The translations under genes and the position numbers were made by a program. Below, piece after piece: positions 1 to 64,000 of a DNA stretch of 64,000 bases (the stretch's first letter is position 1; each line of letters begins with the position of its first letter). Below the pieces are notes generated by a model. That model was given only the letters and a program-made list of their open reading frames with translations. It was not told where the DNA came from and searched no databases. The stretch is from positions 2,294,001 to 2,358,000 of the forward strand of contig JBNRSN020000010.1 of NCBI GenBank assembly GCA_051313645.2, given 5' to 3'. This stretch comes from Centroscyllium fabricii. Its lineage: Eukaryota.

Positions 1-3000
1 CAAAAAACCATCACACTTCATTATTTCATCCCTACATCCATTAAACTACATGCACATCTCACATCCCTCTAATCAATAGTTCATCCACATCAACACTTCT
101 TTATATAAAACGTCTATATTCATTCTACTCTAAATCCAATGATCATCCACCCAGCACACACACTATCCATTCAAATCTACCTCCATTTATTCATCATGTT
201 ATTACTCAAACCACTCATCCAACGAAAGTCCCCTTTACACATTCATCCCTTTATCAATTCAACTACCTTTCCATCCCAAAGTTCTTACCAATAATCTGTC
301 CAATGATATAACCATCCACCCAAATTTTCCAACATGCATTTATCATTCACCCATTCAACCACTCTCTCCTTCAACTTCTATACCATTCATTCATCTGTTT
401 ATCAATTAACCTGCCTTTCTATCCAGCAATTTCTCTGCCCAACCACCGAAAATCCATACGACCATTATTCATACATCCCTACATTCATTCAACTAAATCT
501 CCCTCTCACAATCCCTCCCATCAACACAAACACCTCTCTATCAAAATCACTATGCATTCTACTCTCAATCTACATCTCATCCATCCATCCAGCAGGTATT
601 TATTTAACCCTCCATGAATTCGAATGACTTTCCTCCCAACATTGCCTCCAATAATCATTCAAACCATCCAAAACTCCAACCAAACATCAATCGATGCAAT
701 CATTAAATCTTTCATTCATCCAACAGTGCCTTCAGTCATCAATAAATCCATCCATTGAAACTTCCATTTATTCAACATTGCCTCCATTCATCATTAAGTC
801 CACCACTGGTTATCAATAATCCAATACTCGCGACAATTATTCATTCTTTCATCGATGTATGTGTTCATTCAAATTCTCATCCATTCAAAACCTATTCTAT
901 TCAACAATCCACCATGCATCGATCCAGCACCTTCACCAGTCATCGATCCATTCAACACCACACCATCAAGCACTCTTTCCAAACATCCATCTAGCCACTC
1001 AAACACCTGGCCCTCCAATGCACCCTTCAATCATTCCGGCATCCATTGGAAAACACATTTATCCATCGCTCCCGCCAATATCCCACAATCCATCCATAGA
1101 ACCAATTATCCATTTAACTCTACCTCCATTCATTCACATCACCATTCTTTCAACCACCCATCCAATGTCCCCTCCATTCATTCCTGTCCATTCAACTACT
1201 TGTCCCTCCAGTTATTCGGACCAATAATCCAACCATTATGCATACAAATAAATTTAACTCTCCCTCCATTCTTTGACATTGCCACACTTTGAAGCTCCTA
1301 AACTAAATTCCCCATCATTCATTAATCCCTATATTAATTCAACTTCCTTTCATTGCAAAAAAGTTGATCTATCTTCCATCCATTCAACATCCCGTTCTGC
1401 CATTTCTTCCTCCATTTAATCATCTCGACTCATTAAAGCACCAACTCATCTCCCACTCCGTTAATCCATCCCTTTATCATTTCAACTATCGTTCCATCCA
1501 ATAATCCACGTGATCACCAATCCTATCAAAATTCTCTCCCTTCCTTCATGCATCCCTACATCCATTTAACTGCATATCCCTCCCACATTCCCTCTTCAAT
1601 CTCCCATCCACACAAACACCTCTCTATCCAAACCTCTCTATGCATTCAACTCTCAATCGACAACCCGTAGATCCAGGACGCCATTTATTATTTCATCCTT
1701 CAATTATGAATTCCCGAATCCACAGACCTAGCTAGTCATTCAGCATTGGCTCAACGATCAGCCGAGCCATTGAGTTATTTCATTCAAACTCCCGCCAATT
1801 CAAAACCTCTTATTGAATAATCCATCATTCATCTATCTATCACCTCCACCAGTCATCTATCAATTCAACAATGATCTATCCAGCACTCCTTCCAAATAGC
1901 CATCAATCAGACAGCCACCCCTTCAATCATTCATCCATCCATTGAACCACCCATCTATCTGTCCGTCAATCCCGCAAACATTCATTCAACCAGTCTAAGG
2001 AAACCTCCATTCTAATATTCCACAATCCATCCATGCAAACAATTATACATTCAACTCTCCCTCCATTCATTGACATCGCCACACTTTGAACCAACCAGTA
2101 ATCGAAATACACCTTCATTCCTTAATCCATTTATTAATTCAACTACCTGTCCATCCCAAACATGTGATCAAGCGTCCACCCAATCAACTTCCCATCCATC
2201 AAACTCTCCCTCCATTCATTAATCACTCCGCTCATTCAACATCCTGTTATTCACCCATTCCGTTATTTCGCCCCTTTATCAGTTCAGTAAACTTTCCATG
2301 CAACAATCCCTATGATAAACGAGCCAGCTATTCAGCACACCCGTCATTCATTACTATATCCGTTCAACTGCTCATCCATTTCACAATTCCTCTAATCAAA
2401 CTCCCATCCACACAAATACCTCTCCATTCCAAATCTCTATATTCATTATGCTCTCAAATCGACAACTAATCCGTTCAGCATGCCCTTGATTCTTTCATCA
2501 CTCCATAAAATCAACCAACTCACCATCCAGCACTCCTTGCAAACATCCATCCAGCCACTCGAACATCTGGCACTCCAGCGCTCCCTTCCATCATTCATCC
2601 ATCCATTGGAAAATGCCGCTATTCACCCCTCTATCCAAACATCCGACAATCCATCAATAAAACCAATTGTTCGTTCAGCTCTGCCTCCATTCATTCACAT
2701 CGCCAATCTTTATAACACCCCACCAATGGCCTCTCCATTCATTCACCACTTTATCAATTCAACTACATTCCCATACTAAAATTCTACCCAATAATCAATC
2801 AATCAAATTACCACCCACCCAACTCTCCCTACATGCATTTATCTCCAATTAAATAAAGCACCCTCTGATCCATCTTCCACACCATTTATTCATCCGTTTA
2901 TCAATTAACCTGCCTTTCTACCCAACAATCTCTCCGATCAACCAGCCAAACAACCATCACTCACTTCATTAATTCATCCCTATGTCCATTAAACTACATG

Positions 3001-6000
3001 CCCATCTCACCCGTCTAATCAATAATCCATCCACATAAACACTTCTCTATTTAAAACGTCTATATTAATTCTGCTCTAAATCCAATGATCATCCGCCCAG
3101 CACACACACTATTGTTTCAGCCCTCCACAAAATCAACCACTTCTCAAACCAACAACCCTTCCAATCATCAATCAATCCATACACTGAACCATTCACTCAA
3201 GATTCACACCAAACATACACTAATTTAAAATAATACAACACGCTCTGCAATCTTTCCTGTACCCATCTATCTATTCAGTCACACATTCAAACAGTCATCA
3301 ATTTACCATAGATTCCATTATACATTATCTTTTTTTCCCTCACCATTATTCATCAAATCTACTAATCATCCATTCAACAACGCCCCAACCAGCATTCCTT
3401 CCAAACATCTGTCCATCCAGGCACGCACTTGCCATCCAACGCTCCCTTCAATCATTCATATATCGATTGAACCGCCATCCATTCATCACTCTCTGCAACC
3501 ATCCAAGCATCCATCCATTCACTCAACTACGGTATCTATTAATTAATCCTTCCAAAATTGAACCACCTACACATCTAAAATTGCCTCCAATCATCAATCA
3601 CTCAATACACGGATTGCCTGTCATCCAATACACACTGCAACAATTCATTTTGTCTTCCATTTATGCATTCTTTCCAAACCCATCCATTCAATACCTCATT
3701 GAATAATCCATCTATCCATCACCTCCACCAGTAATCCACCCAACAGCACCCATTGCAACATTGCTTCCAAATCTTTATCAACCAACTGACCGTATCTTCA
3801 GTCATTCATCCATCCATTCAAACACCCATCCATCACTCCTTCCAACCATTCAACTATCCATCAATCCAAACAGCCATCTATGCAAACCTCCGATCAAATA
3901 TAACAATCTATCCAATCAACCATTTATCCATTCCACCCTCGCTCTATTCATTGACATTGTCATACTTTGAACCACACATTAATCTAAATTCCCCTTTATT
4001 CATTAATCTCTTCATTATTTCAAACGTATTTCTATCCCAAAAATCTGATCTATCGGCCATTCTTTCTAATTCCATCTATCCAACTCTCCCTCCATACATT
4101 CAACTCTCCACTCATTCAACCACCCATCCATATACCATTCCATTATTTCTTCCCTTTATCAGTTCAGCTACCTTTCCATCCAACAAGCCCTGTGATAACC
4201 ACCCCTACAATCTACCACTCGCTTCATTCATTCATTCATCTCTGAATCATTTCAGCTGAATATCCTCTCAATTCCTCCAATTAAACTGCAAGCCACACAA
4301 ATACTTCTATATTCAAAATATCTGTATTCATTCTACTCCGAATAGATAACTCATCCATCCAGCAAGTCCTTGATGCTCTCCTGCCTCCATATGTTCACTC
4401 ACCTCTCCATGCAGCATTCTATCCAATCATGAATTTACCCACAGATAGAACCATCCGTTCATCCAGCATTGCCTCCAAAGATCAGCCAATCCATCCAGTA
4501 ATTTCCAACCATTCAACAGTCCCGACAATCATTCATCGATCCATCCTCCATTCTGTTCAATCATTCATTCAATCACTCATCTATCCCACCCCCCTGCTGT
4601 CCAATACTTATTCCATTATTCTTCTGTTCATCACAGCAACCTATCATCCAACCCACACATTCAATATCAGCCCGCTCAGCATCCTTCCAAAAATCGATCC
4701 ATTTACTCCACCACCTGGGAGTACAGCACTGCATTCAATCATTCATCCATCTATTGAACCATCGATCCATCCATCACTCCACCTAACCAACCATCCATTC
4801 ACTCAATTAAGCTTATATCCAATAATCTCGCCGAACACCCGACAATCCATCAATTCAACAAATTCTCCATCAATGTCTCCCTCCATCGTTTCAAATCAGC
4901 ATTGATTTAACCACCAGTCCATTCAACGTCCCATCGATTCATTCCTTCCTTTATCAGTTAAACAGCCTGCCCATCCCACAATCTATCTGATCAACCACCC
5001 ATCCATCCAACACTCTCTTGGTTCATTTAACCTTTCATCCATTTAACCAAAGTTCCACACATCCCTTCCTGACTTCATTCATCCTTTTCTCCGTCAAACA
5101 TTCTCTCTAACCAATCAGTATACCACACAAACTCCTCTTTTCCTTACAAACTCATTAATGATTATTCCCTTACAACACAGCTCATAAATCCAGTGCACCC
5201 TCTATTTTTTCATCTCCATAGATTCTACAATATCTGCTTCCAACAGTTTATCCAATCTTTATGCAATCCATCCACTGATATGCAATCGTCGAATACTGCC
5301 TACTGTAATTCATTTTGCTTTCCATTTATTCATTCACTCAATCTTTGATCCTTTCAACACCACTTTTCAATATCCATCATGCATCACCTCAACCAATCAG
5401 TCATCCGTATATATCTTCACCGTCCAACCATCCAAACATTATTCTATCCAACCCAACACCCAAACATACCACAGTTCTTTCATTCAAGCAAATATCCATT
5501 CAAATCTAACTCCATTTATTCATCATTGTTATTTTCAAACCACTCATCCAACGAAAGTCCCCTTTACACATTCATCCCTTTATCAATTTAACTACCTTTC
5601 CATCCCAAAGTTCTTGCCAATAATTTGGCCAATGAAGTAAACATCTACCCAAATTTGCAAAAGCATGCATTTATCATCCACCCATTCAACCACTCTCTCT
5701 TTCAATTTCCACACCATTCATTCATCTGTTTATCAATTAACATGCCTTTCTATCCAGCAATATCTCTGCCCAACCACCCAAAATCCATACTCCCATCATT
5801 CATACATTCCTACAGCTACATATCCCTCTCACAATCCCTCTAATCATTCTCCCATCCACACAAACAGCACTCTATCCAAATAACTATTCATTCTACTCTC
5901 AATTGACATCTCGTGCATCCATCCAGCAGGTCATTTCTTTATTTATTTAACCCTCCATAAATTATAACGCCTTTCCTTCCAACGTTTCCTCCAATAATGA

Positions 6001-6291
6001 TTCAAACCATTCAAAACTCCATCCAAACATCAATCAATGCAATCAATAAATCTTTCATTCATCCAACAGCGCCTTCAGTCATAAATAAATCCTTCCATTG
6101 AAAGTTCCATTTATTCAACATTGCCTCCATTCATCATTAAGTCCACCATTGGTTATCAATAATCCAATATTCGCTACAATTATTCATTCTTTCATCGATT
6201 TATGCATTCATTCAAACGCCCATCCATTCAAAACCTATTCAATTCAATAATCCATCAAGCATCAATCCATCACCTCCAGCAGTCATGCTAC

Positions 6292-6696
6292 GGGCGGCAC
6301 GGTGGCATAGTGGTTAGCACTGTTGCCTCAGAGCACTAGAGACCCGGGTTCAAATCCAGCCTCGGGTACTATCTGTGTGGAGTTTATACATTCTGCCCGT
6401 GTCTGCGTGGGTTTCCTCTGGGTGGTCCGGTTTCCTCCCACAGTCCAAAGATGTGCGGGTTAGGTTGCTAGGCCATGATAAATTGACCCTTATTTTTAGT
6501 GGGATTGAATGTGTAGGGTTATAGGGATAGGCTGTGGTGTGTGCCGGTGCAGGCTCGATAGGGATCGAGGGATATGGGGACAAGGCAGGGACAGGGTACT
6601 GGGTTGGATGATCAGCCATGATCTCATTGAATGACGGAGCATGCTCGAAGGGCCGAATGGCCTACTCCTGCTCCTATCTTCTATGTCTATGTCTAT
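6292..6696 (+). mobile_element. Full-length HE1/V-type tRNA-derived SINE with CR1-derived tail
   Basis: gggcggcacggtggcatagtggttagcactg head with pol III A box (tggcatagtgg) and B box (ggttcaaatcc). V-domain-like core tgtgtggagttt...gtgtctgcgtgggtttcctc. CR1 tail gggccgaatggcctactcctgctcc followed by (ctatgt)n. Empty paralogous site near 945. Confidence 0.9.
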
Positions 6697-9416
6697 CCAT
6701 TCAACACCACACCATTCAGCACACCTTCCAAATATCCATCTAGCCACTCAAATACCTGGCCCTCCAACACTCCCTTCAATCATTCCTGCTTCCATTGGAA
6801 AACACATTTATCCATCCCTCCCTCCAAAATCCCACAATCCATCCATAGAACCAATTATCCATTTAACTCTACCTCCATTCATTCACATCACCATTCTTTC
6901 AACCAGCCATCCAATGTCCCCTCCATTCATTCCTGTCCATTCAACTACTTGTCCCTTCCATTATTCAGACCAATAATCCACCCATTACGCATAGAAATCC
7001 ATTTAACTATCCCTCCATTCTTTTACATTGGCACACTTTGAAGCACCTAATCTAATTTCCCTTCCTTCATGAATCCCTATATTAACTTAAGTACCTTTCA
7101 TTGCCAAAATTTTGATCTATCTTCCATCCATTCAACTTCCCGTTCTGTCATCTCTCCCTTCATTCAATCATCTCTAGACTCATTAAAGCACCCACTCATC
7201 ACCCACTTCATTAATTCATCCCTTTCTCAGTTCAACTATCGTTCCATCAAATAATCCCTGTGATAACCAATCGAATCAACAATCTCTCCCTTCATTCATT
7301 CAACCCAACATCCATTCAACCTCATATCCCTCCCACATTCCCTCCCACATTCCGCCATCCACACAAACACCTCTCTATCCAAATCTCTCTATTCATTCAT
7401 CTCTCAATCGACCACTCATAGATCCAGGACTCCATTTATTATTTCATCCCTTCAATTATGCATTATCCCATCCACTGTACTAGCTGGTCACTCAGCATGG
7501 CCTCAACGATCAGCCTATCCATTGAGTTATTTCCAATCGTTCAACATTGCCTACAATCATTCTTCCATCTGTTCACTCATTCATTGAAGCCCTCACCCAG
7601 CCAACAACCCTGCTATCCATTAAGCATTCCATCTTTTCATCTATTCATCACAGCAAAATATCATCCACTCACTGAAGAACTCCCCGCCCAGCAAACCTTC
7701 CAAACATCCATCCATCCAGTCCACCGCCTGGAAATCCAGCGCTGCATTCAGTAAATCATTCATCTATTGATCTTTCATCTATCCATCACTCCCACTAATT
7801 ATTGAAACACCCATCCATCCACTCAATCCAGCTTCTATCCAACACTCACGCAAAACATCCCACAATCCAACAATCAACACATTCTCTATTATATCCCCCT
7901 TCATTGCTTCACAACTGCATTGAATAAACAACCAATCAGTTCACTTTTCCCTTTGAGTCATTCATCTCCAGCAATAAAATTGCCTGCCTATTGCAGTCCC
8001 TCGGATCAACCATCCACCCGTCCAACACTATTTATACATTCATGCCACAATCCCTTAAACCAAATCTCCAAACCTCACTTCCCGGAATCACTCACCCATT
8101 ATACATTCAATTGCCGACCCATCTCTCAATCGCTCTAATCGATCAAATATCTACTGAACCTCCTCTCTACCCAACACACTCGCTATTCATTACATTCTCA
8201 AACCACAGCTCATCAAACTAGTGTGCCCACTTCTATTCCTATGTCTCTATATATTCTACCGACTTTCCATCCAATATTAACACCAATAATCATTCAGTCA
8301 ATCCAAAATTTATTCCAAACATCAATCAATCAATCCAATCAACAAACCTTTCATTCAGTAAACAGCGCCTCGAGTCATAAATAAATCCATCCATTGAAAA
8401 GTCCATTGCCTCCAATCATCACTCAGTCCATCCACTGCTAATCAATAATCCAGTACAGCCTTCTATTATTCATTCTTCAATCGATATATCGATTCATTCA
8501 AACTGTCATCCATTCAAAACCTATTCTATTCAATAATCCATCATTCATCTATCCAGCACCTACACCACTCATCCATCCATTTAGCACTGTGCCATCCAGC
8601 ACACCTTCTAGACACCCATCCAGCCACTCAAAAACCTGGCCATCCAGCGCTCCCTTCAATCATTCATCGATCCATTGGATAACACTTCTATCCCACTCTC
8701 CCTGCAAACATCCCACAATCCATTCATCCAACTAATTATCCATTCAGCTCTCCCTCCATTCATTCACATCGCCACACTTTAAACCACCCATCCAAAGACA
8801 CCTCCGCTCATACATCCCTTTATCAATTCAACTTAATTTCCATCCCGAAATTCGGCCCAATAATCCATGTAACGAAATAAATAGCCATGTAACTCTCCAA
8901 CATGCATTTATATACCATTCAAATAACCACACTCTCATTCAACTTAAATGCCATCCATTCATCCGCCTTTCATTAAACTGCCTTTCGAACCAACAATCTC
9001 TGGTCAATGAATCAACGATCCACCACTCCCCTTTTCATTCATCACTACATCCGTTAAATTATATGTCCATCTCTCAATCCCTCGAATCAATAACCCATCC
9101 ATTCAAAATCCCTATCCAGAACCTATCTAATCATTCTACTCTCAATCCAATGATCATCCAACCTGCACTCTCTCTATTGTTTCAGCCTTCCATAAATTCA
9201 CCCACTTCTCAATTCAACAATCCTTCCAATTATCTATCAAACCAAACACAGAACTAGTCGCTCAATATTCCCTCAAATCTTCAACTGACATACAATTATT
9301 TCAACATTCCCTGCAATATTTAATCTACAGTTATTCACTAATTCATTTAAATACTCCCCGCTATTCAATAATCATTACACTATTCATCGTGTGTTTATTG
9401 CCATTATTCATCGATT

Positions 9417-9694
9417 TGTTGAGGCCTGCAAGGCTGAAGGACCACGCTGGACACAGAGAGGTTAAAAGCAGAGTTTTTATTAACTACTTGTTACAGCTAG
9501 GGCCAGGTAGGGAGAAAGAGACTGAGCCACCTGGTGCTCAGGTATTTAAAGGTCCCGCCGCTGGGGACGTCACTGCCGGCTGGCCACCTGGTGACGTCAT
9601 CACGTCGGGGAAGTCCGTGCGTCCTCCGACGGGCGGGGCCGCTTTGCAGCCTTCCCAGCGCGGGTTCGTGGCTGCCGGTGGGCGTGTCACCACA
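9417..9694 (-). repeat. 3' LTR (278 bp)
   Basis: tgttgaggcc...gtcaccaca, a direct repeat of 13951-14228 with about 5 substitutions counted by eye. Confidence 0.96.
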
Positions 9695-9709
9695 CAGCTC
9701 CCCCCCAGA
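9695..9709 (-). other. Polypurine tract of the Gypsy element
   Basis: Minus strand reads TCTGGGGGGGAGCTG immediately before the TG of the 3' LTR. Confidence 0.85.
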
Positions 9710-9906
9710 ATCCGCGAGGGGAAGTGTAGTTTCCTAGAGGAGAGGGAGACAAAAAAAAAAGAGAGCAGACACACATTTCGATTACACACAGAATGTCCGA
9801 CAGTTTGCCGCAATGGCCTGGTGTTGTGGCCGGCAGGTGTTGTGTGCTGTTCCGTGGTTCGAAAGATGGTGTTGTGGCGGGCCGTCAATGCTCTGCCCGT
9901 GTCGCC

Positions 9907-12900
9907 TCAGGCGAGGCGCTTAGGTGGCCTGATGGTACGGCCGGCACGTGTGATGTGTTGCTTGTTGGTCTGTGTGGGAGTGTGGGCGGGTTTTGGTGCG
10001 GTAGGGCGGCCGCGTTTAGGTGGTTGTGTGGGGACTGTTGTCTCGCCCGCCATTACGTGTGCTGGTTTGAGCCGGTCAATGGATACGGTCTCAGTTCGGT
10101 TGCCCATTTGAATGTCAAAAGTCTTGGGTCCCGCCCGAAGCACTCTGAATGGCCCGTCGTACGGTGCCTGCAGCGGTGCTTTGTGAGAGTCATGGCGGAC
10201 AAACACGTACTTGGCGTCCTGAATGTTGTTGGGGACTCGTGTCGCCGGTTGACCGTGGCGGGCCACCGGAAGTGGTTTGAATTCTGCTGCCTGGTTGTTG
10301 AATTCCCTGAGGCAGCGCTCGGCCGACCAGGGTTCGGTTGTTTCTGCGACGAACTCGCCTGGTACGGTTAGTGGTTGGCCGTAAACGAGTTCGGCTGCCG
10401 AGGCGTGTAGATCTTCTTTGGCCGCTGAGCGGAGGCCGAGCATTACCCAGGGCAGGCGGTCCGTCCAGGTTGCGTCCTGGAGGCTGGCCCGCAGGGATGT
10501 TTTAAAAGTTCGGTGGAACCGTTCGCAGAGGCCGTTGGCTTGCGGGTGGTAGGCAGTGGTTCGGTGCAGGGTTACCCCAAGGTCGTGAGCGATGGTTGAC
10601 CATAGGGTTGAAGTGAATTGGGGGCCCCTGTCTGAAGTAATGTCGTTGGGGACGCCGAAGCGGGCGACCCAGGTGGCGATGAAGGCCCTGGCCAGTTCGG
10701 CGGTGGTGGTCGTGTTGAGGGGGACCGCTTCAGGCCAGCGGGTGGTGCGGTCGACCATTGTGAGGAGGTACGAGTGTCCACGTGATGGGGGTAGTGGTCC
10801 GACCAGGTCGATGTGCACGTGGCTGAAGCGTCTGGCTGGGATGGCGATTGGTTGGAGCGGTGCTTTGATGTGTTTGTGCACCTTGGCTCGCTGGCAGGCA
10901 TTGCACGAGGTGGTCCAGGCGCGGACATCTTGTTTTAGGCCGCGCCAAACGAATCGCGCAGAGATGAGCTTGGTGGATGCGCGGACGCCGGGGTGGGAGA
11001 GGCCGTGGAGGGCCTGGAAGATGTGCTGCCTCCACGCGGGTGGCACCACGGGCCTGGGTTGGGGCAGGGTGACGTCGCAGCGGACCGCCGTGGCTGTGGG
11101 TCCGTGTGCTACGGTGGCTAAGAGTAGGCCGGGAAGTTTGTTGGTGGGGTCGAGGAGGTCGGGATCGCTGAGTTGGTCGGCCGCCATTTTGACGTAGTCG
11201 ACCGCGGTCTGGACGGTGTTGGTGGTTGGGAATGCGCAGCAGTGTGCGCAGGCGCGGTTGGTGGCTGGGGTTGGGGGGTGGTCGGCGGTTTGGGTGCTGG
11301 TGGTGCCTGCGCTGCTGATGGCGGGGCCCGCGGGGTGGTCGGGGTTGGGCTTGTGAATGGCGGGTCGTGAGAGGCAGTCGGCGACCACGTTGTCGCGGCC
11401 GGCAATGTGCTGGATGTCGGTCGTGAACTCGGACACGGCCGCGAGCTGGCGCTGCTGCCTGGCCGACCAGGGTTCGGAGAGCTTAGCCATTGCAGAGACT
11501 AATGGTTTGTGGTCCACAAATGCTGTAAAGTGGCGGCCCTCTAAAAGGAAGCGGAAGTGGCGCACTGCGAGGTAGAGAGCGAGTAGCTCCCTATCGAAGG
11601 CGCTGTACTTGACCTCTGGGGGCCGGAGGCGGCGGCTGAAAAAGGCCAGTGGTTGCCATGAGTCGCCCGACCACTGCTCGAAGACTGCTCCGACAGCGTG
11701 GTCGGAGGCGTCGGTGGTGAGGGCTACTCTGGCATTGGGCCTGGGGTGGCTGAGGAGGGTGGCTTTGGCAAGGGCCGTTTTGGTTGCGGTGAAAGCGGTG
11801 GCAGCTTCGGCCGTCCACTCGACCGCGGTCTTGTTGGATTGCCCGTGGGTGGCCTGGTAGAGGGGGGCCATGAGGGCGGCTGCGCCGGGGATGAAACGGT
11901 TGTAAAAATTAACCATTCCAAGGAATTCCTGCAGCCCCTTGATGGAGTGCGGGCGGGGGAATTCCTGGACCGCCTGCACCTTGGAGGGCAGGGGTATGGC
12001 CCCGGTGTGGGAGATGTGGTGGCCGAGGGAGTCAATAGCCTCGAGGCCGAATCGGCACTTGGAGGGGCTTAATATGAGGCCGTGGTCGGCCAGGCGTTTA
12101 AAAAGGGTTCTGAGGTGGATGAGGTGTTCCCGGGGGGAGGCGCTGGCCACCAGGATGTCGTCGAGATAGACGAATGTGAACTGGAGGTCCCGGAGGACTG
12201 AGTCCATGAGGCGCTGGAAAGCCTGGGCCGCGTTTTTGAGTCCGAAGGGCATCCGGAGAAATTCGAATAGGCCGAATGGGATGATGACGGCTGTCTTAGG
12301 GACATCCGCCGGGTGCACTGGAACTTGGTGGTAGCCCCGTACCAGGTCGATCTTTGAAAAGACCGTGCAGCCGGCTAGCCTCACGGAAAAATCCTGGATG
12401 TGGGGGACTGGGTACCTATCCGGGGTGGTGGCGTTGTTGAGGCGGCGGTAGTCTCCGCAGGGGCGCCAGCCGCCATCGGGTTTGGGGGCAATGTGGAGGG
12501 GGGAGGCCCAGGGTCTGCTGGAGCGGCGGATGATGCCGAGCTGTTCCATGATGTGGAACTCGGCTCGCGCGATCTCTAGCTTGGCCGGGTCCAGCCTGCG
12601 TGAGTGGGCGTGGACCGGGGGGCCTGTGGTGGTGATGTGGTGCTCTACGCCGTGCTTGGCGGAGCGGGCTGTGAAGGTGGGGTTGGTTAGGGTGGGGAAC
12701 TCGGCGAGCAGCGTGGCGTACGTGTCGGAGTTGCGGGCCCGGCAGTGAGCTGCCGTGTGGGTCTGGTGTGCTGGGGCTGTGGAGCACGGGATGGTCGACA
12801 TGATTTGGATGTCGACCAGGCGGCGCCGGGTAACATCGACAAGGAGCCCGTGGGCGCACAGAAAGTCGGCTCCGAGTAGGGGCGTGTTAACCTGTGCGGT

Positions 12901-13854: not shown

Positions 13855-13937
13855 GGTGGTAGCGATTCGGCTGCGGCAGCTTGGCCCTCAGTCCTGCAGT
13901 GGCTGCTTCATTGTTCACCTGAGAAACGTCTCAGGTA

Positions 13938-13949
13938 TCGGGGTCACCA
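13938..13949 (-). other. Primer binding site complementary to the tRNA-Trp 3' end
   Basis: Minus strand TGGTGACCCCGA lies one base after the 5' LTR. It equals the first 12 nt of the known tRNA-Trp PBS (TGGTGACCCCGACGTGAT). Confidence 0.88.
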
Positions 13950-13950
13950 G

Positions 13951-14228
13951 TGTTGAGGCCTGCAAGGCTGAAGGACCACGCTGGACACAGAGAGGTTAAA
14001 AGCAGAGTTTTTATTAACTACTTGTTACAGCTAGGGCCAGGTAGGTAGAAAGAGACTGAGCCTCCTGGTGCTCAGGTATTTAAAGGTCCCGCCGCTGGGG
14101 ACGTCACTGCCGGCTGGCCACCTGGTGACGTCATCACGTCGGGGAAGTCCGTGCGTCCTCCGACGGGCAGGGCCGCTTTGCAGCCTTCCCAGCGCGGGTT
14201 CGTGGCTGCCGGTGGGCGTGCCGCCACA
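13951..14228 (-). repeat. 5' LTR (278 bp)
   Basis: tgttgaggcc...gccgccaca, adjacent to the PBS and followed by the TSD gatt. Confidence 0.96.
14010..14172 (-). promoter_or_regulatory. LTR promoter and polyadenylation signals
   Basis: In element orientation: GC box (perfect gggcgggg in the 3' LTR at 9631, gggcaggg here), palindromic CRE TGACGTCA at 14126-14133, TATA-like TTTAAATA at 14077-14084 and AATAAA at 14010-14015. This is the expected U3-R order. Confidence 0.65.
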
Positions 14229-15699: not shown

Positions 15700-16095
15700 G
15701 GGTGGCACGGTGGCAGTGCTTTGCACTGTTGACTCACAGCACTGGAGACCCGGGTTCAAATCCAGCCTCGGGTACTATCTGTGTGGAGTTTGCACATTCT
15801 CCCGTGTCTGCGTGGTTTTCCTTCGGGTGTTCCGGTTTCCTCCCACCGTCCAAATGTGCGGGTTAGGTTGATTGGCCAGGATAAATTGACCCTTAGTGTT
15901 TGGGGGATTGAATATGTGGGGTTACGGGGATAGGGTGGGATATGTGTCGGTGCAGGCTCGATAGGGATCGAGGGATATGGGGGAGCGCAGGGGCGGGGTG
16001 CTGGGTTTGGATGATCAGCCATGATCTCATTGAATGGCGGAGCAGGCTCGAAGGGCCGAATGGCCTACTCCTGCTCCAAGTTTCTATGTTTCTAT
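15700..16095 (+). mobile_element. Full-length HE1/V-type SINE
   Basis: Same head, core and CR1 tail as the 6292 copy, ending in (tttctatg)n. ATCA on both flanks. Empty site ctccgatcaaccagcc at ~2932-2947. Confidence 0.9.
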
Positions 16096-46010: not shown

Positions 46011-46181
46011 TGATGTGGAAGTTTAATGAAAGGGTGGTCGAATGATTGGAATATAAAGTCATGTAGAGAGATTTTGGTGCATCATTATTTGATTGATGTT
46101 TTATTGGTCAGTATTTTGGGATAGAAAGGAAGTTGAATTGATAAAGGGATGAGTGAAGAAAGGTAAATTTCAATGGATGAA
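46011..46181 (-). repeat. Inverted ~170-bp fragment of the satellite
   Basis: The only G-rich satellite segment seen. Its reverse complement aligns to 46652-46821, 35778-35945 and 39813-39980. Confidence 0.9.
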
Positions 46182-52880: not shown

Positions 52881-53473
52881 TGTTATTCTTTTCATTATAC
52901 ATCCTATCAACCAGTCATCTGTTTAAACAAATCCTCACCCAGCATTCATTTCGGACATTCATCCATCCAGTCAAGCAGCTGGCCATCCAGCACACCCCTC
53001 AATCATTCCTCCACCCAGTGCACCACCCGTCCATCCAGCACTCATGCCAACCATTCACTCACCCAATGTTATATACAACACTCTCTCCAAACATCATGCA
53101 ATTCATCAGTGCAAACCATTCTCCATTAAACTTTCACTCCATCCTTCCAACTTCCTGTACATTCATTCATACATGTATCAACCCAAATAACTGTCTATCC
53201 CACAATTCTACTAACTGATCATCCATCCATTCAGCTGTGCATCTATCCAAATTACATTGCATTCATTCATCCGTTTTTCTGTTCAACTACCTGTCCATCC
53301 CATCATCCCTCTGATCAAGCGCCTATCCATCCAAAACTCTGTTAAATCATTCCTTCATCCATTTAACCAAATTTCGACCCATCAGTCCCTTTATTCATTC
53401 CTTTATCCAGTCAACTGCCTATACATCTCACAATCCCTCTTGTCAATCATTCATCCACTCAAACACCTCTTTC

Positions 53474-53801
53474 TATGTGTGTGGAGTTTGCACATTCTCC
53501 CCGTGTCTGCGTGGGTTTCCTCCGGGTGCTCTGGTTTCCTCCCACAGTCCAAAGATGTGCGGGTTAGGTTGATTGGCCAGGATAAATTGACCCTTAGTGT
53601 TAGGGGGATTGAATATGTGGGGTTACGGGGATAGGGTGTCGATGCAGGCTCGATAGGGATCGAGGGATATGGGGAGAGGGCAGGGGCGGGGTGCTGGGTT
53701 TCGATGATCAGCAATGATCTAATTGAATGGCGGAGCAGGCTCGAAGGGCCGAATGGCCTACTCCTGCTCCTAGTTTCTATGTTTCTATGTTTCTATGTTT
53801 C
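53474..53801 (+). mobile_element. 5'-truncated HE1/V-type SINE
   Basis: Begins at the core tgtgtggagtttgcacattctccccg, has the CR1 tail and (tttctatg)3. Confidence 0.9.
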
Positions 53802-54645
53802 CAAGACTCTCTTTATTCATCCTGCTTTCAATCCACAACTCATTCATCCAGCAAGCCCTCTGTTCTTCAATCCCTTCTTAAATTCATCCACCTCTCCATT
53901 CATCTTTCCCTCATATCATAAATCAAACGATCTGCAAAACCAACTATTCATCCAACATTCCCTTCAGTCATCAACCAATCCATCCACTGATTTTCAGTCA
54001 TCCAATACTCCCTACAGTCATTCGTGTACCCATCCATGTATGCATTCATTCAAGCTCTCATCCATTAAAACCTATTCTATTGAATTCTCCATCATTCATC
54101 TATCCATCATCTCCACCAATCATCCTTCATTTCAACACCTCCCTCTCCAACAATCCTTTAAAACAGTCACCTAACCATTGATTCATCTCGACATTCAGCA
54201 CTACCTTCAACCATTCATCCATACTTTGAAAATTCCATCCATCCATCCATCAGTTCCTCCAACCATCCATCCAATCTTCGATACCACCCGGCCTCCAAAC
54301 ATACCACAATCATCCATTCAAACAATTATTCATTCAACTCTCACTCCATTTATTCACAGCATCATTCTTTAAATCACACAGCCATGCAAAGACCCTGGCA
54401 TTCCTTCATCCCTTTATCAATTCAATTACCTCTCCATCCCATAATATGGACCAATCATCCTTCCATTAAATTAGCATCCATCTCGCTCTCCCTCCATTCA
54501 TCTTCCACTCATACAAACACAAATAAATCCAACTCATTCATTCATCTCACAAGTCATTCAACCACCCACTCACCTACCATCCACTCCATTCATTCATCCC
54601 TTTATCAATTCAACTACCTGTCCAGCACATTATTCTGAACAATAA

Positions 54646-55049
54646 TAGGCCTAAATTGTTCAGATTTTAGAAGAATGAGAGGTGATCTCATTGAAACATA
54701 CATAATTCTTACAGGACTTGACGGGGTAGATGCAGGGAGGATGTTTCCCCTGGCTGGAGAGTCTAGTACAAGAGGTCACAGTCTCAGAATGAGAGGAGGA
54801 GCAATTTATTCACTCAGAGAGTCGTGAACCTTAGGAATTCTCTACCTCAGTGTGCTGTGGAGGCTCAGTCTTGTAATATATTCAAGAGAGAGATCGATAT
54901 TTCTTTGAATATTAAGGGAATCAAGGGATATGGGGATAGTGCAGGAAAGTGGAGATGAGGTAGATCAGCCATGATCTTATTGAATGGTGGAGCAGGCTCT
55001 AGGGGCCGAATGGCCGACTCCTGCTCCTATCTCTTATGTTCTTACGTTC
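54646..55049 (+). mobile_element. Decayed CR1 LINE 3' fragment with short 3' UTR
   Basis: tttagaagaatgagaggtgatctcattgaaaca (FRRMRGDLIET), agaggtcacagtctc (RGHSL), aagggaatcaagggatatgggg (KGIKGYG) and the CR1 tail. It carries an internal deletion relative to the 17678 copy. Confidence 0.9.
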
Positions 55050-58000
55050 AACTACTCCTCCATGCAAGCCTCCCTCCATTCATTCATCACGCTCGCATTC
55101 ATCCATCCACTCAGCTAATTCCCATTACATTCATTCATCCATTTATAAATTCAACTGCCTTTCTATCCAACAATCTCTTTGATCAACCACCCAACCGCGC
55201 ATCACACCCTTCATTCATTTATCCCTACATCCAATCAACTACAAATCCCACTATTCAATCATCCATCCACTCAGCCACCCATCCACCAATCCACCGTCTA
55301 TCCAACACACTTTCTTTTCATGCTAATTTCTATACACAGACCATCCATTCAGCACAAACCGTATATTTTTACCCTTCCTAAATTCAACCAATTCTCCATC
55401 CAACATTGCCTCCAATCATTTAAACCATCTGCAGATCCGTTCAGTCATCGAACATGTCCTCAAGTCAGCCATCCCTCCATTGAACCATCCCTCCAACACT
55501 CCCGCCAACTATCCATCCATCCATCCAACCAGTCTTGTTTCCCACACACCTTTGAAACACAACGTAATCCATGCATCCTACCAATTATACATTCAATTCT
55601 CTCTCTACATTCATTCACATCGCCACTCTCTAAGCAGCCCACTTATCCAAACTTCCATTCACTCATTCATCACTATCAATTGAACCTACCTCTCCTTCCC
55701 AGAATTCAGAACAATAATTCATCTATTCAACTGCCCAGCCATAGAACTCTCCCTCCAATCATTCATCATCCACTTATTCAAACACCCACTCATCCAACTT
55801 CCACTTAATTCATTCATCCCTTTATCAATTAAACTTCCTTTCCATCAAACAATCCCTATGATCAACCACCCAACCATCCATCGCTCCCTCCATTCCATTA
55901 TCACTACATCCATTCAACTGCCTTTCCATCTAGCAATCTCTCTAATCAAACACCTCTCTGTCCAAAAATCTCTCTATTCCTTCTATTCTCAATCCACAGC
56001 CCACCCACCCAGCATACATTGTAATGTTTCATCCCTTCATTATTTTAAAGCCTCTCCATCCAAAAGTCCCTCCAATCACCAATCAATCCATCTGCAGCAC
56101 CTTTCATCCAAGGTTGCCCCCAATCATTCAGACATCCATCACCCAATAGTCCCTATAATCATTCATGTTCCCATCAATTTATGCATTCATTGATCCTCTC
56201 ATACAAACAACACATCTTCTATTCAACCAGCACTCCCTTCATTCATACATTGATCCACCCATCCATCCATTGCTACCCGGTCTCTATCCAACACTCTCCC
56301 AATATCACACCATCTAAAATTCTACCCAATCTCTATTAATCTCACCCTCTATAGTTTCAAATCACCACTGATTAAACCACTCACCAAATTAAATTCAACC
56401 ACCACACAATACAACTTTATCTCCAATCCTCATTCAATTCTTCTGCAGAAACATCCATTCATTATCATTGCCTGCAATCATAAATCAATCCACCACTGAT
56501 GTATAATCAGCCAATACACCCTACAATCAATCATGTATCAATCAATGTATGCATTCAGTCAACCTCTCATCCATCCAACACCACTTCTGCTGAATAATCC
56601 ATCATTCACCCATCCATCACCTCAACTAATCATCCATCCCTTCAACACCGCTCCGCCCAGCACTCCTTCCAAACATCCATCCATCCACCTGGCAATCCAG
56701 TACTCCCTTCAATCATCCATCCATTCAGCCACCCATCCACCCTTCATTACATCCAACTATCCATCCATCCACACATCGATCCAATCAGTTTTCTGTCCCA
56801 TCCTCCCGCCACACATCCCACAATAGATCCATTCAGCCAATTATCTATTCAACTCTTCATCCATTCATTCAGTTGCTGTTCTTTGAACAACCCCTCCATC
56901 CTAATTGCAATTTATTAATTCATCCGTTTATCAATGGAACAGACTGTCCATTATACAATACCTTTGATCAACCATCCTTCCACTCCACATGTGCTCTCTT
57001 CATTAATCCCTCGATCCATTCAACCACTGCTCCATTCATTCATTATTTTATCCATTCAACTACCTGCGCTTCCACAATTCCTCTAATCAATCACCCTGGC
57101 CAACGCTCACTATTAATTCGCCTTTTAGTGCACAACCCGTCCATCTAACCCGCCCTCTATTATTTCATCTATCCATAATTACAACCACTTCTACATTCAG
57201 CAATTTTACTTCATTCAATTTATCCACTGAATAATTCCCTCCAACCATCAATCAATCCATCCACTGTAATTTCAACCACCCACTACTTCCGACAATCACT
57301 CAGTCATCCATCCATCCACTCAATCATCCCCTCTACCAACACTATCTCCATCCAACACTACATTCTTCCATTCAAACAATTATCCATCCAACAATGTCTC
57401 CAATAGATCAACTTTGCCTTCATTCAATCACCAATCCATCCAACTGTCCCTCCACACATTCAATTATTTATCAATGCAAGCACCAGCCCTTCCATATATC
57501 CCATTGACCCACTCAACCACCCATCCTTCAGTCGCTCCATTCATTCACCTTTGCAACCACTCAACGACCTTTACATTCAACATGCGCTGCATTCATTAAC
57601 TTCTATAATCATTCAGCCAGCCATGCATCCAGCGTCCTCTCCATTCATTCACCTCCCCATCCATTCAACCACCTATCCAGCGAACACTCATTCCATTCAT
57701 TCACATCTCCACCCATTCAACCATCGATCTATCCAACACCACCTCCATCAATACAACCGGTTTGCCACCCAAACGCACATCTTTTGAGGCATCTCTCTCA
57801 ATTCAACTACCTGTCCATCCCATAATCGCAACTAACCAATCACCCATCCATTCAACTCGTCCTCCAAACGTTCAACCATTTCTTCATCCATCACTTATCC
57901 ATTCATTACCTCATCATTCACGTAAACACTTATTTAAAAATCACTCTTCATTCATTTATCTCTCCGCCCACTTTCACCATACATGTATCTCCCAATTCAT

Positions 58001-60375
58001 TCAACCACTCTTCTATCCAACACTCCCTCCATTCATTCTTCAACATTGCCTCCAATCATCCATCACTCCATCCACTGTACTTCCAGTCATGCTATACATC
58101 CGACAATCAATCACCCATGCAACCAATCACCTGTCCATCCAACACGCTCTCCATCCAACACCACATCCTTCCATTCAAACAATTCTCCACCAAAAATACT
58201 CAACATTCCTTCATCTTTCCATTCATGCAATTACCCATCCATCATACTTTCCAAACATGCATTCACCCTTTTACTAATTCATTCAACTACCTCTCCATCG
58301 AAAAATCCCTCTGACCAACTATCGATCCACTTAATCACCAATGCATACAAAGTTTCCCTCACATACTTCACATTCCGTTTCATTCAACCATCTCTCCATC
58401 CAACACTCTCTGAATTCATTCACATCTACATTCATTTCATTGTGTATTTATCCAGCACTCACTCTTTTCATGAATTCTACCAGCCTTTGGAACAATTTTC
58501 CTTCCATCACTTCCTGCATTAATTTAGCTCCCCATCCATTAATTCACCACTCCAACCAGTCAACACATTCTGTGACCAAAGCTCTCGGCCATTCATTCAC
58601 TCCACAGATATTCCAACCAGCATTATAACCATTCATTCTTCCCTCCATAAATTCAACAAAATATCCATCCAATATTGTCCCCAAACCTCAAACAATGCAT
58701 CCACTATATTCCCAATCATCCACTACTCTCTACAATTATTCATTAATCCATCCATTTACTCATTCATTCAACCTCTCATACATCCAAACACTCTTTTATT
58801 CAACAATCTATTATTCATTTGTACATCACCTCAACCAACCATTCATCCATTGTACAGCTCGCCTTCACAACATCCATCTATAAACTCAAACTGCCCATCC
58901 CATACTCCCTTCAATCATCCATTAAAACAGCTCTCCATCTATCATTATATACACCCAACATCCAAACATGCATCAATCCAACAGTCTTCTATCCCATCCG
59001 CCGTCCAGATAACCAAACTCTATCCATTCAAACAATTATCCATCCAACTCTTCCTACATTTATTCAAACCACCAATCAATCTAAAGTTCACTCCAATCAT
59101 TCATCACTTCACCAGTTGAACTAGCTGTTATTCCGACAATTGGGACCAATAACCCATCCATTCAACTGCCTATCTATCAAACTCTCCCTCCATTCATTCA
59201 TGTTCCACTGATTCAAAAACCCGCTCATGCAACCTTCACTCCATTCAGTCATCCCGCTATCAGCTAAACTGCCAGTTCTTACACCAGTCGATTTGATGAA
59301 CCAAACTTCCACTGAACACGCCTTGAATTCATTCATCCCTCGATCCATTCAACCAGTTCTCCATCATCTCATTTCATTCATCCTTTTATCATTCAACTAC
59401 GTGTGCTTCCACATTCCCTCTTACCAATCACCCATCCACACAAAAACTCTCTAGCCATCATTCGCTATTCATTCTTTTGTCAATCTACAGCTCATCCATC
59501 CAGCACACCCTGCACTCTTTCATCCAGTCATAAATACAACAGCTTCTGAATCCGACATCCCATCCATTTATCCAACATTCCTTCCAAACATCAAACATTC
59601 CTTTCGCTGATCCATCCATTGATACAACATTCCCTCCAATCATCAAATATTCCAGCCACTGAACCTTCTATTCTTCAAATATTACCTTCAATCATCCATC
59701 AATCCATCGACTCTACTTCCAATCATTCAGAACTTCATACAATCATCCATCGATCCATCCATCCAATCACCTGCCCATCCAACACCACATCATTCCATTC
59801 AACCCATTCTCCACAGAACACCACGTCCATTCCCGCACATTTCCATTCATGCAATCACCCATCCCTCCGACTGTCCCTCCATTAATTCACCACTTTATCA
59901 ATTCAATTTCTTCACCTTTCCTTTCATGCAATCATCCATCCATCAAATTTTCAGACCATTCATCCGCCCCTTTAATAATTCAGCTACCTATCAATCCTAC
60001 CGTCCCTTCATTCATTCATATTGCCCTCTTCAAAAAACCGGCTCATGCAACTTTCACTGCATTCAGTCATCCCTCTATTAGCTAAACTGCCTTTTCATAC
60101 AACAATCCCTTTGATCAACCATTCCTCCACTCAACACGCTCTCTATTCATTCATTTCTCGATCTATTCAACCAGTTCTCCATCCTCTCCCTTCATTCATA
60201 CCTTTATCATTCAACTACCTGTGCTTCCCCATTCCCACTGAAGAATTGCGCATCCACTGAAACAACTCTCTGGCCAACATGTTCTATTCATTCTTCTCTT
60301 AATCCGGAGATCTCCATCCAGCACACCCTGTACTCTTTCATCCATCCATAAACATAACAACTTCTGTATCCAACA

Positions 60376-60606
60376 TTCCCACCACCCAAAGACATGCAGC
60401 TTAGGTGAATTGGAGATGCTAAAAATTGTCCATGTATATGTGTGTGAGATATAGTTCTTAGATTTGGGTGTGTCGGGGGATATGGGGCGAGGGTAGGAGG
60501 GGGGAGCTGGGTTTGGATGATCAGCCATGATCTCATCAAAACATGGCGGAGCGGGCTCGAAGGGCCGAATGGCCTCCTCCTGCTCCTATCTTCTGTGTCT
60601 GTGTCT
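60376..60606 (+). mobile_element. 5'-truncated SINE of a divergent V-type subfamily with CR1 tail
   Basis: ccaaagacatgcagcttaggtgaattgg core end, a different linker, then gatgatcagccatgatctca...gaagggccgaatggcctcctcctgctcc and (ctgtgt)n. Confidence 0.8.
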
Positions 60607-62001
60607 CATCAATCAATCCATCTTCTGTACTTCAAATCGTACAATACGCTCTACAATCAGACATTCATTAAATCATCCAATCATCAACACATCCAACACA
60701 CTTTCTGTCCAACACAGCATCCTTACATTAAACCAATTCTGGAACCAACACTCTCTCCAATCCTTCAGCTTTGCATTCATTCCGTCACCCATTGATCAGC
60801 CTGTCCCTCCATTCATTCAGCTCTTTATCAATTCCACTAGCAGCCCTTCCGAATTTAGCCCTGTCCAGCTATCCAGCAAAACAAACACCATACATACCAC
60901 AAACGCTCCATTCAAAGCCACATCCATCCATCACTCCTTCCATTAATTTACCTCCCCAACGATACATTCACCCCTCCTTCCATTCAACCCATTCTGTGTC
61001 CAAAACTCTCATCCTTCCATTCACTGAACCGATATTCCAACCAACATTATCATTCATTCTTCCCTACATAAATGCAACCACCTCTATGTCGAGCATTGTC
61101 TCCAAATATCAATAAATCCATTCACTATACTTCCAATCATCCATTTATCTGTACAATCGTTCATTGATCCATCCATTTATGCATTCTTCAACCTCTCATC
61201 AATCAAACAACTCTTCTGTACAATAACACATCATTCATCTATCTATATCGTCAACCAATCATATGTCCCGTTCAACAACTCCCCTTCCAGGTCTCCTTCA
61301 AAATATTGATCTATAAACTCAAACAAATGGCATTCGGTACTCTCCACAGTCATCCATCCATTCGTTGAAAGAACTATCCATCTATGAATCAGTTCCTCCA
61401 AACATCCAACCATCCTCCAGTCTAACAGTCCTCTATCCCAACGCCCTGTAAACAAACCACAAACGATCCATTCGAAATATTATCCTAACAACTCCCCATC
61501 CATTCGTTCAAACCACCCATCCATCAAAATGTTATTCCATTCATTCATCCCTTTATCAATTCAACTAGGTGTCCATCGCACAATTGGGACCAATCATCCT
61601 TCCATTCAACTGCCTATCCATCCAACTCTCCCTCCATTCATTCATGTTCCACTGATTCAAAAACCCACCCATGCAACTTCCACTGCATTCAGTCATCCCT
61701 CGGTTAGCGAAACTGCCTTTTCATACACCAGTCCCTTTGATCAACCATTCCTCCACTCACCACGCTCTCTATTCATTCATTTCTCGAAATATTCAACCAG
61801 TTCTCCATCCTCTCCCTTCATTCATACCTTTATCATTCAACTACCTGAGCTTCCCCATTCCCACTGAAGAATTGCACATCCACTGAAACAACTCTCTGGC
61901 CAACATGTTCTATTCATTCTTCTCTTAATCCGGAGATCTCCATCCAGCACACCCTGTACTCTTTCATCCATCCATAAACACAACAACTTCTGAATACAAC
62001 T

Positions 62002-62231
62002 TTCCCTCCACCCAAAGACATGTAGCTTATGTGAATTGTAGATGCTATAAATTGTCCATGATTATGTGTGTGAGATATAGTTCTTAGAGTTGGGTATGTC
62101 GGGGGATATGAGGAGAGGTTAGGAGGGGGGAGCTGGGATTGGATGATCAGCCATGATCTCATCACAAAATGGCGGAGCGGGCTCGAAGGGACGAATGGAC
62201 TCATCCTGCTCCAATCTTCTGTGTCTGTGTC
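62002..62231 (+). mobile_element. Duplicated paralog of the 60376 SINE fragment
   Basis: Same sequence and flanks, about 1.62 kb downstream. Confidence 0.8.
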
Positions 62232-64000
62232 ACATCAATCAATCCATCCTCTTTACTCCAAATCATACAATACGCTCAACAATCAGACATTCATTAAATC
62301 ATGCAACACACATTCTGTCCAACACAGCACCCTTACATTAAACCAATTCTGGACCCAACACTCTCTCCAATCATTCAGCTTTGCATTCATTCCGTCACCC
62401 ATTGATCAGCCTGTCCCTCCATCCATTCAGCTCTTTATCAATTCCACTGGCAGCCCTTCCGAATTTAGTCCTGTCCAGCTATCCAGCAAAACAAACATAC
62501 ATACCACACACTCTCCATTCAAAGCCACATCCATCCATCACTCCTTCCAATAATTTACCTCCCCATCCATTCATTCACCCCTCCTTCCATTCAACCCATT
62601 CAGTGTCCAAAACTCTCATCCTTCTATTCACTGAACCGATATTCCAACCAACATTAACATCATTCATTCTTCCCTACATAAATACAACCGCCTCTATGTC
62701 GAGCATTGTCTCCAAACATCAATAAATCCATTCACTATACTTCCAATCATCCAATTATCTCTACAATCGTTCATTGATCCATCCATGTATGCATTCTTCA
62801 ACCTCTCATCAATCAAACAACTCTTCTGTACAATAACACATCATTCATCTATCTATATCGTCAACCAATCATATGTCCCGTTCAACAACTCCCCTTCCAG
62901 GTCTCCTTCACAATATTGATCTATAAACTCAAACAACTAGCATTCCGTACTCTCCTCAGTCATCCATCCATTCGTTGAAAGAAATATCCATCTAGAAATC
63001 AGTTCCTCCAAACATCCAACCATCCTCCAGTCCAAAAGTCCTCTATCCCAACGCCCTGTAAACAAACCACAAACGATCCATTCGAAATATTATCATAACA
63101 ACTCCCCATCCATTCGTTCAAACCACCCATCCATCAACATTTTACTCCATTCATTCATCCCTTTATCAATTCAACTAGGTGTCCATCGCACAATTGGGAC
63201 CAATCATCCTTCCTTTCAACTGCCTATCCATCCAACTCTCCCTCATTTCCTTCATCTTCCATTTATTCAATAAAACTCGTGCAACATTCACTCCATTCTT
63301 TCATCACTTCACCAGTTCAACTAGCTGTTATTCCTACAATTGGGACAAATAATCCATCCATTCAACTGCCTATCCATCAAACTCTCCCTCCATTCATTCA
63401 TGTTCCACTGATTCAAAAACCCACTCATGCAACATTCACTTCATTCAGTCATCCCGCTATCAAACGGCCAGTTCTTACACCAGTCCATTTGATGAACCAA
63501 CCTTCCACTCAACACGCCTTGAATTCATTCATCCCTCGATCCATTCAACCAGTTCACCATCATCTCATTTCATTCATCCTTTTATCATTCAACTACGTGA
63601 GCTTCCACATTCCCTCTTATCAATCACCCTTCCACACAAAAACTCTCTAGCCATCATTCGCTAATCATTCTTCTGTCAATCGACAGCTCATCCATCCAGC
63701 ACACCCTGTACTCTTTCATGCATTCATAAATACAACAGCTTCTGAATCCAACATCCCATCCATTCATCCAACATTCCTTCCAAACATCAAACATTCCAGC
63801 CACTGAACCTTACATTCTTCAAACATTTCCTTCACTCATCCATCAATCCATCGACTCTACTTCCAATCATTCAAAACTTCATACACTCATCCATCCATCC
63901 ATCGATCCATCCATCCAACACACTATCCATCCAAAACCACATCATTCCATTCAACCCATTTTCCACAGACCACCACGTCCATTCCCGCACATTTCCATTC

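Follow-up and report, generated by a model that had tools for sequence, protein, structure and literature searches.

Higher-order arrays of the alpha-satellite type expand in layers, and layered centromeric arrays carry younger blocks within older layers. Human satellites 2 and 3 (HSat2/3) are described in PMC4022460 as CATTC-derived sequences in kilobase-scale units, 1.77 kb long on chromosome 1 and 3.6 kb for DYZ1, that fill multi-megabase blocks beside centromeres and on the Y chromosome, with a DYZ1 array of 7-98 Mb. For shark chromosomes, PMC10620051 quantifies simple tandem repeats, satellites included, and places subtelomeric simple repeats at the ends. The present study concerns a complex satellite array of Centroscyllium fabricii, approached through a window (the whole stretch of DNA analysed) of 64,000 bases on contig JBNRSN020000010.1, positions 2,294,001-2,358,000, with window coordinates 1..64000. 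A preliminary description of the window had seen in it a three-letter, tetramer-derived satellite family resembling HSat2/3. We consider it likely that the window belongs to a single-locus complex array of 112 kb, with a 4-bp register and kilobase-scale local duplications, whose likely source is a decayed TCCA/TTCA microsatellite and which is probably neutral filler of a subtelomeric region.

Extent, register and uniqueness of the array

The window holds 20,500 C, 18,568 T, 17,979 A and 6,953 G (10.9% G), and its commonest 4-mers are TCCA, CATC, ATCC, CCAT, CATT, TTCA and ATTC. The plus strand had been called essentially free of G, which fails for the window: it is broken up by G-rich islands, and 16 hand-delimited transposon or insertion intervals take up 10,947 of its 64,000 bases (~17%). 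The remaining 53,053 satellite bases still contain 6.4% G, beside 33.8% C, 29.8% A and 30.0% T. The term 'three-letter' is loosely true of the satellite part and untrue of the whole window.

The core array covers ~112 kb of the scaffold (~2,286,400-2,398,100), from ~7.6 kb before the window to ~40 kb after it, and its insertion-free segments amount to 95,888 bases with 6.2% G. In a 264-kb profile with 100-kb flanks, the tetramer-rich strand sets in gradually ~17 kb before the window and ends sharply ~40 kb after it, and in the dot matrix self-similarity can be traced between about -7.6 kb and +104 kb (window coordinates). The left fringe, ~10 kb beyond the core, keeps the tetramer density with a weaker 4-bp register and 8.4% G; hidden Markov models (HMMs) of the array modules gave no match above control level there (maximum 29.5 bits), and the fringe looks like an older, more decayed layer of the array.

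The proposed tetramer level is borne out, as TCCA/TTCA-like words dominate and base and 4-mer autocorrelation favours multiples of 4 out to ~120 bp. The 4-mer match rate peaks at 16, 20, 36, 52, 84, 88 and 104 bp and there exceeds that of order-3 and order-5 Markov controls, which level off beyond ~16-20 bp; at 16 bp it is 3.8% and at 52 bp 3.59%, compared with ~1.2-1.5% in the controls. At long range, 10-mer matches peak at up to 3,972 per 21-bp bin, where the control never exceeds 95, and the periodicity exceeds that of low-complexity controls both in the register and at these distances. Perfect TCCA/TTCA runs of at least four units are fewer in the array than in the Markov control (25 vs 61), and the array is therefore no live microsatellite. 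A residual short register without long perfect runs, as seen here, is a feature of simple-sequence-derived complex satellites.

Above the register stand irregular modules of 0.6-2.3 kb, which carry the 16-, 20-, 36- and 52-bp repeats and a repeat of 146-149 bp. Alignment of 46 module starts gave a consensus with ~60-87% window conservation, self-matches at 148-149 bp and stop codons in all six frames; the ~145-bp repeat reported earlier was recovered at 146-149 bp, both by Tandem Repeats Finder (TRF) and in this consensus. Two block HMMs produced 73 of 145 and 121 of 276 matches above a cut-off of 60 bits, with control maxima of 24.4 and 33.9 bits. Anchors of the first block are spaced at a median of 0.99 kb (quartiles 0.88-1.86 kb) and those of the second at 0.75 kb (0.60-0.99 kb), with an overall range of ~0.3 to 4.5 kb. 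Modules thus exist, as had been suggested, but they are irregular rather than units of ~1.1-1.6 kb, and the array has no monomer of fixed length.

The array is found at one locus, although unrelated arrays of like type may exist elsewhere. DNA queries from the left domain, the right domain and the far end gave 55/55, 105/105 and 112/112 matches inside the array (40 of 54, 51 and 59 candidates, respectively, were scored, in a search that passes over simple repeats). For a nearby dispersed repeat used as positive control, the same search yielded 2,419 candidates spread over many contigs, and it is therefore able to see dispersed families. Two 22-base patterns, with one mismatch allowed, had all of their genome-wide matches (28/28 and 17/17) inside the array, against 1 and 0 for the controls, and the module HMMs found no strong match at 42 other sampled loci (maximum 20.4 bits). 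Pure tracts of seven TYCA units are common in the genome, with 2,853 overlapping matches vs 163 for the reversed control, and ten such tracts sampled on another scaffold were all short, the longest measuring 738 bp by TRF. Seeds therefore exist in the genome, and amplification of one is seen at this locus.

Sequencing runs confirm that the sequence is real. Six runs from two studies contain the array stretch. Within window positions 33,800-52,000, the eight listed contig pieces from run X2 differ at 10/10,182 bases, and the listed pieces from run X5, which carries a second organism label and belongs to the second study, differ at 16/2,365. The sequence is shared at ~99% identity with the second organism label, and the first study may be the source of the assembly. 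The 18-kb stretch tested is thus covered by matching contigs of independent origin, in which exact pieces reach 1,543 bp; the 9.1-kb copies lie outside that stretch. In run X1, contig depth, which is not copy number, was 9-39 in satellite bins against 2.4 million in the main bin of a short interspersed element (SINE), which speaks weakly against a hidden high-copy family.

Duplication rounds and inserted transposons

In the dot matrix the array falls into a left domain (~-7.6 to 51 kb) and a right domain (~57 to 104 kb), which match each other at ~70%. The units of 1.6, 3.9 and 9.1 kb named earlier have counterparts in the offsets of 1626, 3871/4020 and 9121/9189; they are local tandem duplications of 2-6 copies at 70-97.5% identity, however, and not regular higher-order repeats. 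The label of a satellite family is not supported; what is seen is one heterogeneous array of ~112 kb, full of insertions, in which 38% of bases have a copy at an identity of at least 90% (8.7% at 95% or more and 29.4% at 90-95%). The features of the window are collected in Table 1.

Table 1. Features of the window in window coordinates.
Position	Strand	Feature	Details
1..64000	+	Middle part of the single complex tandem array, likely derived from TCCA/TTCA	Composition/tetramer profile, dot matrix, layer map
1778..9416	+	Copy 1, youngest left-domain duplication, ~7.6 kb	With SINE S1, without SINE S2 and CR1 piece
6286..6692	+	SINE S1, ~400 bp	Array-duplicated to 20296-20699 and 29372-29775
9417..14228	-	Gypsy-type long terminal repeat (LTR) retrotransposon inserted in the array	Between copies 1 and 2
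14229..23417	+	Copy 2, 9.1-9.2-kb duplication	
15700..16093	+	SINE S2	Duplicated to 24884-25292 with the same flanks; empty site near 2940
17679..18421	-	5'-truncated CR1-like end of a long interspersed element (LINE)	Duplicated to 26885-27632; empty site near 4521
23418..32988	+	Copy 3, 9.1-9.2-kb duplication	Private reverse-strand SINE, 31844-32246
32989..33741	.	GC-rich insertion, internal 15/29/38/68-bp repeats	No Pfam match
34723..44076	+	Older 3.9-4.0-kb duplication	Two to three copies, 77-86%
46006..46180	-	175-bp inverted piece of the satellite itself	85.7% to 46652-46826, other strand
53473..55046	+	Truncated SINE (53473-53797) and CR1-like end (54620-55046)	Satellite in between
55047..64000	+	Start of right-hand domain, irregular 1.6-2.6-kb units	Several with one common truncated SINE
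60391..62232	+	Two copies of one truncated SINE (60391-60605, 62011-62232)	Mark the 1.6-kb unit
63135..63453	+	146-bp tandem pair, example of the 146-149-bp sub-repeat of the module	TRF period 146, 2.2 copies, 81%

The youngest left-hand duplication is present in three copies, 93.3-97.5% alike, of a block that measures 7.6 kb by itself and 9.1-9.2 kb once its insertions are counted. Copy 1 matches copies 2 and 3 at 93.3-94.5%, and the latter two match at 97.0% in their first part (14229-19029 vs 23418-28241, offset 9189) and at 93.8% in their second (19112-22762 vs 28233-31843, offset 9121). The older duplication to their right reaches 85.8% (34723-36538 vs 38743-40575) and 76.9% (36702-40182 vs 40573-44076). 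In the right domain, 59978-61700 matches 61604-63308 at 92.2%; this 1.6-kb offset belongs to an irregular family of 1.6-2.6 kb with at least five copies at 92.4-94.6%, and a duplication of 11.3-11.7 kb runs on past the window (55047-58022 vs 66756-69691). Head-to-tail duplication of larger units in the same orientation is characteristic of simple-sequence-derived satellites and is seen here. The single polarity claimed for all but 170 bp is correct for the satellite, which has one inversion of 175 bp: a genome pattern match falls there on the minus strand, and every minus-strand satellite match among those listed involves it. It does not extend to the 4.8-kb Gypsy element and the SINE and CR1 pieces, some of which lie in the opposite orientation.

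The transposons serve as markers of order. SINE S1 has the same flanks in all three 9-kb copies and an empty site in an older homologue near 943, and SINE S2 and the CR1-like end occur in copies 2 and 3 only. The Gypsy element has LTRs of 278 bp (TG...CA, 5 differences), a 4-bp target duplication (GATT) and one stop-free frame of 1326 codons (9907-13887) with the Pfam domains RVT_1, RNase H and rve; its empty site lies near 23418, at the junction of copies 2 and 3. Because insertions are common to copies and empty sites are preserved, array blocks were duplicated in rounds together with their transposon passengers. The proposal that a decayed microsatellite was re-amplified as larger units agrees with these observations, since the register survives, perfect runs are scarce and insertions are common to copies.

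SINE S1 is likely of the elasmobranch HE1 type. The copies of the CR1-like end contain near-identical 151-residue frames and have a tail in common with the SINE; this LINE end had no Pfam match, and the CR1 label is tentative. Further copies of the truncated SINE of the 1.6-kb unit occur beyond the window, and fragments that translate similarly to the Gypsy element are present in the array flanks. The GC-rich insertion at 32989-33741 has an AT-rich tail, and a short similar-looking tail is found at 52735-52850.

Origin, chromosomal setting and competing explanations

These data suggest a model of how the array may have formed. The seed would have been a (TCCA/TTCA)n tract whose expansion and decay left one strand rich in C and poor in G. 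Duplications of 16-52 bp and ~146 bp, whose periods are visible and whose order is conjectural, may then have built a module of 0.6-1 kb. Modules and groups of modules were duplicated head to tail many times, as the alignments show, and the result is two diverged domains with local blocks of 1.6 to 11.7 kb; SINEs, CR1 ends and the Gypsy element inserted between duplication rounds and were copied along. Unequal exchange or break-induced replication may have been the mode of copying; either would keep orientation and so account for the single polarity of the satellite. The three-letter look would be inherited from the seed and now be eroding.

A non-stationary likelihood fit to 10 duplicate sets, with CpG columns left out, bears on this last point. 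It places the root at 0.042-0.045 G and 0.35 C and the equilibrium at 0.07-0.13 G and 0.13-0.17 C, and because G rises and C falls under both substitution models, the fit indicates a skew that is inherited and decaying. The free model beats the strand-symmetric one (likelihood-ratio test 19.2, 6 degrees of freedom, p 0.004), with G loss ~1.7x faster than C loss. A simple parsimony count that hinted at strong G loss had mis-rooted the three-copy sets and was dropped in favour of the likelihood fit.

The array lies on a 219.8-Mb scaffold, 2.3 Mb in from its start, and 'subtelomeric' is a reasonable label; no telomere repeat array was seen at that scaffold end. The genome measures 7.21 Gb, and this size and the SINE/CR1 content fit the shark or ray origin that the preliminary description had thought probable. 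The chromosome end is a patchwork of several satellites with periods of 37, 48, 27 and 30 bp. Scaffold positions 1-10000 consist of a G-rich 37-bp satellite (89% matches, GC skew +0.74 to +0.79), short pieces of which recur at 100 kb, 800 kb and 1.6 Mb; it is equally skewed, and strong strand skew is therefore not special at this chromosome end. A degenerate, AT-rich 48-bp satellite adjoins the left fringe of the array (scaffold ~2,236,000-2,275,500; multiples of 96 and 144 bp, longest TRF row 10.7 kb), and arrays of 14, 27 and 49 bp lie to the right. The 27-bp satellite forms several blocks at scaffold ~2,421,000-2,454,000 and makes up an entire 6-kb sample at ~2,650,000; two of 20 further 6-kb samples were wholly tandem repeat. 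In the surrounding 464 kb, 89% of the sequence recurs locally, and the stretches at scaffold ~2,094,000-2,155,000 and 2,179,000-2,249,000 are almost devoid of locally unique sequence, a pattern that points to either a large segmental duplication or shared transposons at very high density. On the minus strand, ~95 kb left of the window, lies a retroelement whose gag-, protease- and pol-like frames have 615, 210 and 1181 codons.

Several points weigh against regarding the array as neutral filler that grew from a pure microsatellite. Its neutrality is argued from the absence of functional signals and is probable on that basis. A pure-microsatellite origin is indistinguishable from one in a minisatellite of 16-52 bp composed of tetramer-like words, and the small residual strand asymmetry could reflect conversion, sequence context, alignment error or transcription. 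The array is also old, its oldest copies being ~70-75% alike, and it occurs under the second organism label as well, so that its persistence is real. An ancient, lineage-conserved single-locus element with a function, be it a repeat-built long non-coding RNA, a heterochromatin-organising locus or a hemizygous sex-linked block, is nevertheless unlikely.

A long non-coding RNA locus built of repeats, or a position inside a very large transcribed intron, with transcription helping to keep the strand bias, would fit the single locus, the strict polarity and the residual substitution asymmetry. The skew is decaying, however, and the plus strand has five GTRAG donors in ~96 kb and the minus strand no polypyrimidine acceptor; Rfam gave no match, an ARAGORN search found no transfer RNA, and the surrounding 464 kb yielded no host exon, which makes this reading distinctly unlikely. 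The host-gene search drew on 314 open reading frames (ORFs) of at least 55 residues in 76 locally unique segments of the 464 kb. No host gene was found among the 300 longest of the 314 ORFs, which were the ones scanned, and the Pfam matches were of transposon type apart from one HMMR_N coiled coil; host exons under ~165 bp would have escaped this search, which counts on the side of a functional locus. A below-cut-off GDSL match beside an endonuclease frame is what we take to be a LINE ORF1. The coiled-coil ORF (scaffold ~2,252,200-2,252,960), whose HMMR_N match is weak, was rejected as a host gene as it belongs to the dispersed repeat that served above as positive control, with best copies of 92-94% and candidates on many contigs; it is probably an accessory ORF of an LTR element. 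In 53 kb, heat-shock motifs numbered 0 and DUX-like motifs 1.

A centromeric or pericentromeric satellite of an acrocentric chromosome, present or past, with the layered duplications as its expansion record, would account for young blocks (90-97%) lying within older layers (70-80%) and a decayed fringe, and for the position near a chromosome end. The array measures only ~112 kb, however, and occupies one locus without a fixed monomer and with 2-6 copies per unit, and its insertions, 17% of the window, were retained and not purged. Recovery in two small contig sets was also patchy (27/30 and 8/30 bins), a weak hint against high copy number, and the centromeric reading is very unlikely.

Sex linkage of the array, or its hemizygosity in part of the population, is highly improbable. 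The X1/X2 contig depth of ~1.9 in 28 SINE-free bins, against 1.30-1.36 in two SINE bins, points in that direction, although it is contig depth, not copy number, and has no baseline locus; the contrast could be library bias or hemizygosity. According to PMC11406177, shark X chromosomes are conserved microchromosomes, and a bamboo shark has an X of 28.4 Mb and a 12.5-Mb Y; the richness of shark Y chromosomes in satellites is a point in favour. Both samples contain the array, however, and the 219.8-Mb host chromosome is far from the size of that X, although a fusion could explain the difference.

A battery of small tandem exons hidden in the modules deserves next to no credence and is largely refuted: neither strand showed donor/acceptor pairing or, from unit to unit, a short conserved stretch between AG and GT, the best 27-bp windows were merely tetramer-rich stretches (median 0.73, maximum 0.92) and not outliers, and the consensus has stops in six frames. 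Duplications produced by misassembly are as hard to credit. The region is repetitive and near a scaffold end, but its copies are 2.5-30% diverged and are told apart by private insertions, and the 18-kb stretch is matched by independent contigs and is present in the second study as well. A heterochromatic, centromeric or sex-linked role, as envisaged in the preliminary description, is unsupported.

Comparison with known satellites

The array is most likely an undescribed but ordinary, neutral complex satellite. No description of it was found in the literature covered, which did not include the supplements of shark genome papers, a possible home of repeat libraries. Unless a function comes to light in RNA, chromatin or sex-depth data, it raises no biological question. 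Should the functional reading prove true, it would be a convergent, tetramer-based counterpart of human HSat2/3 with its full expansion history in one assembled locus. The rate in PMC10587355, 7e-10 per generation with a confidence interval of 1.4-14.1e-10 and repeats excluded, is too loose for dating the array.

Like the repeats known from shark chromosome ends, the array sits near such an end, among satellites of 37, 48, 27 and 30 bp. Unlike these neighbours, whose short fixed periods TRF detects, it is so decayed that TRF mostly misses it: TRF cover is 4.5% inside the array vs 20% outside. Decayed arrays of this kind escape TRF, and repeat annotation would miss them. HE1 is described in PMC3747384 as a V-SINE of sharks and rays with the partner LINE HER1. 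The SINE inserted here has, by eye, a similar tRNA-like head and shares its 3' tail with the CR1-like LINE end, a likeness that makes it a putative HE1.

With layered arrays of the alpha-satellite type, the array has in common the nesting of younger duplications in older, diverged flanks and growth in one orientation. It differs in having no fixed monomer and no regular high-copy unit, in its far smaller size and in its many retained insertions, and the many near-identical higher-order copies of centromeric satellites are absent.

The likeness to HSat2/3 stands as an architectural analogy and not as membership. Both consist of diverged short simple units in irregular kilobase-scale repeats, both have one strand that is rich in C and poor in G, and both probably began as simple repeats. 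HSat2/3, however, is built on the pentamer CATTC and forms multi-megabase arrays with subfamilies on several chromosomes, whereas the array described here keeps a 4-bp register in ~112 kb at one locus. No pentamer register is seen, with a 4-mer match rate of 0.57% at a distance of 5 (controls 0.64 and 1.33%) and eight occurrences of the CATTC dimer in 95,888 bases; irregular kilobase-scale units are present, and neither a multi-megabase nor a multi-chromosome distribution is seen. What the locus offers is a fully assembled example of a simple repeat turning into a complex satellite. Because it is a single locus, unique at 31 bases over kilobase stretches, and carries insertions whose empty sites are known, its order of duplication can be read directly, which is hard to do in the megabase arrays of human HSat2/3.

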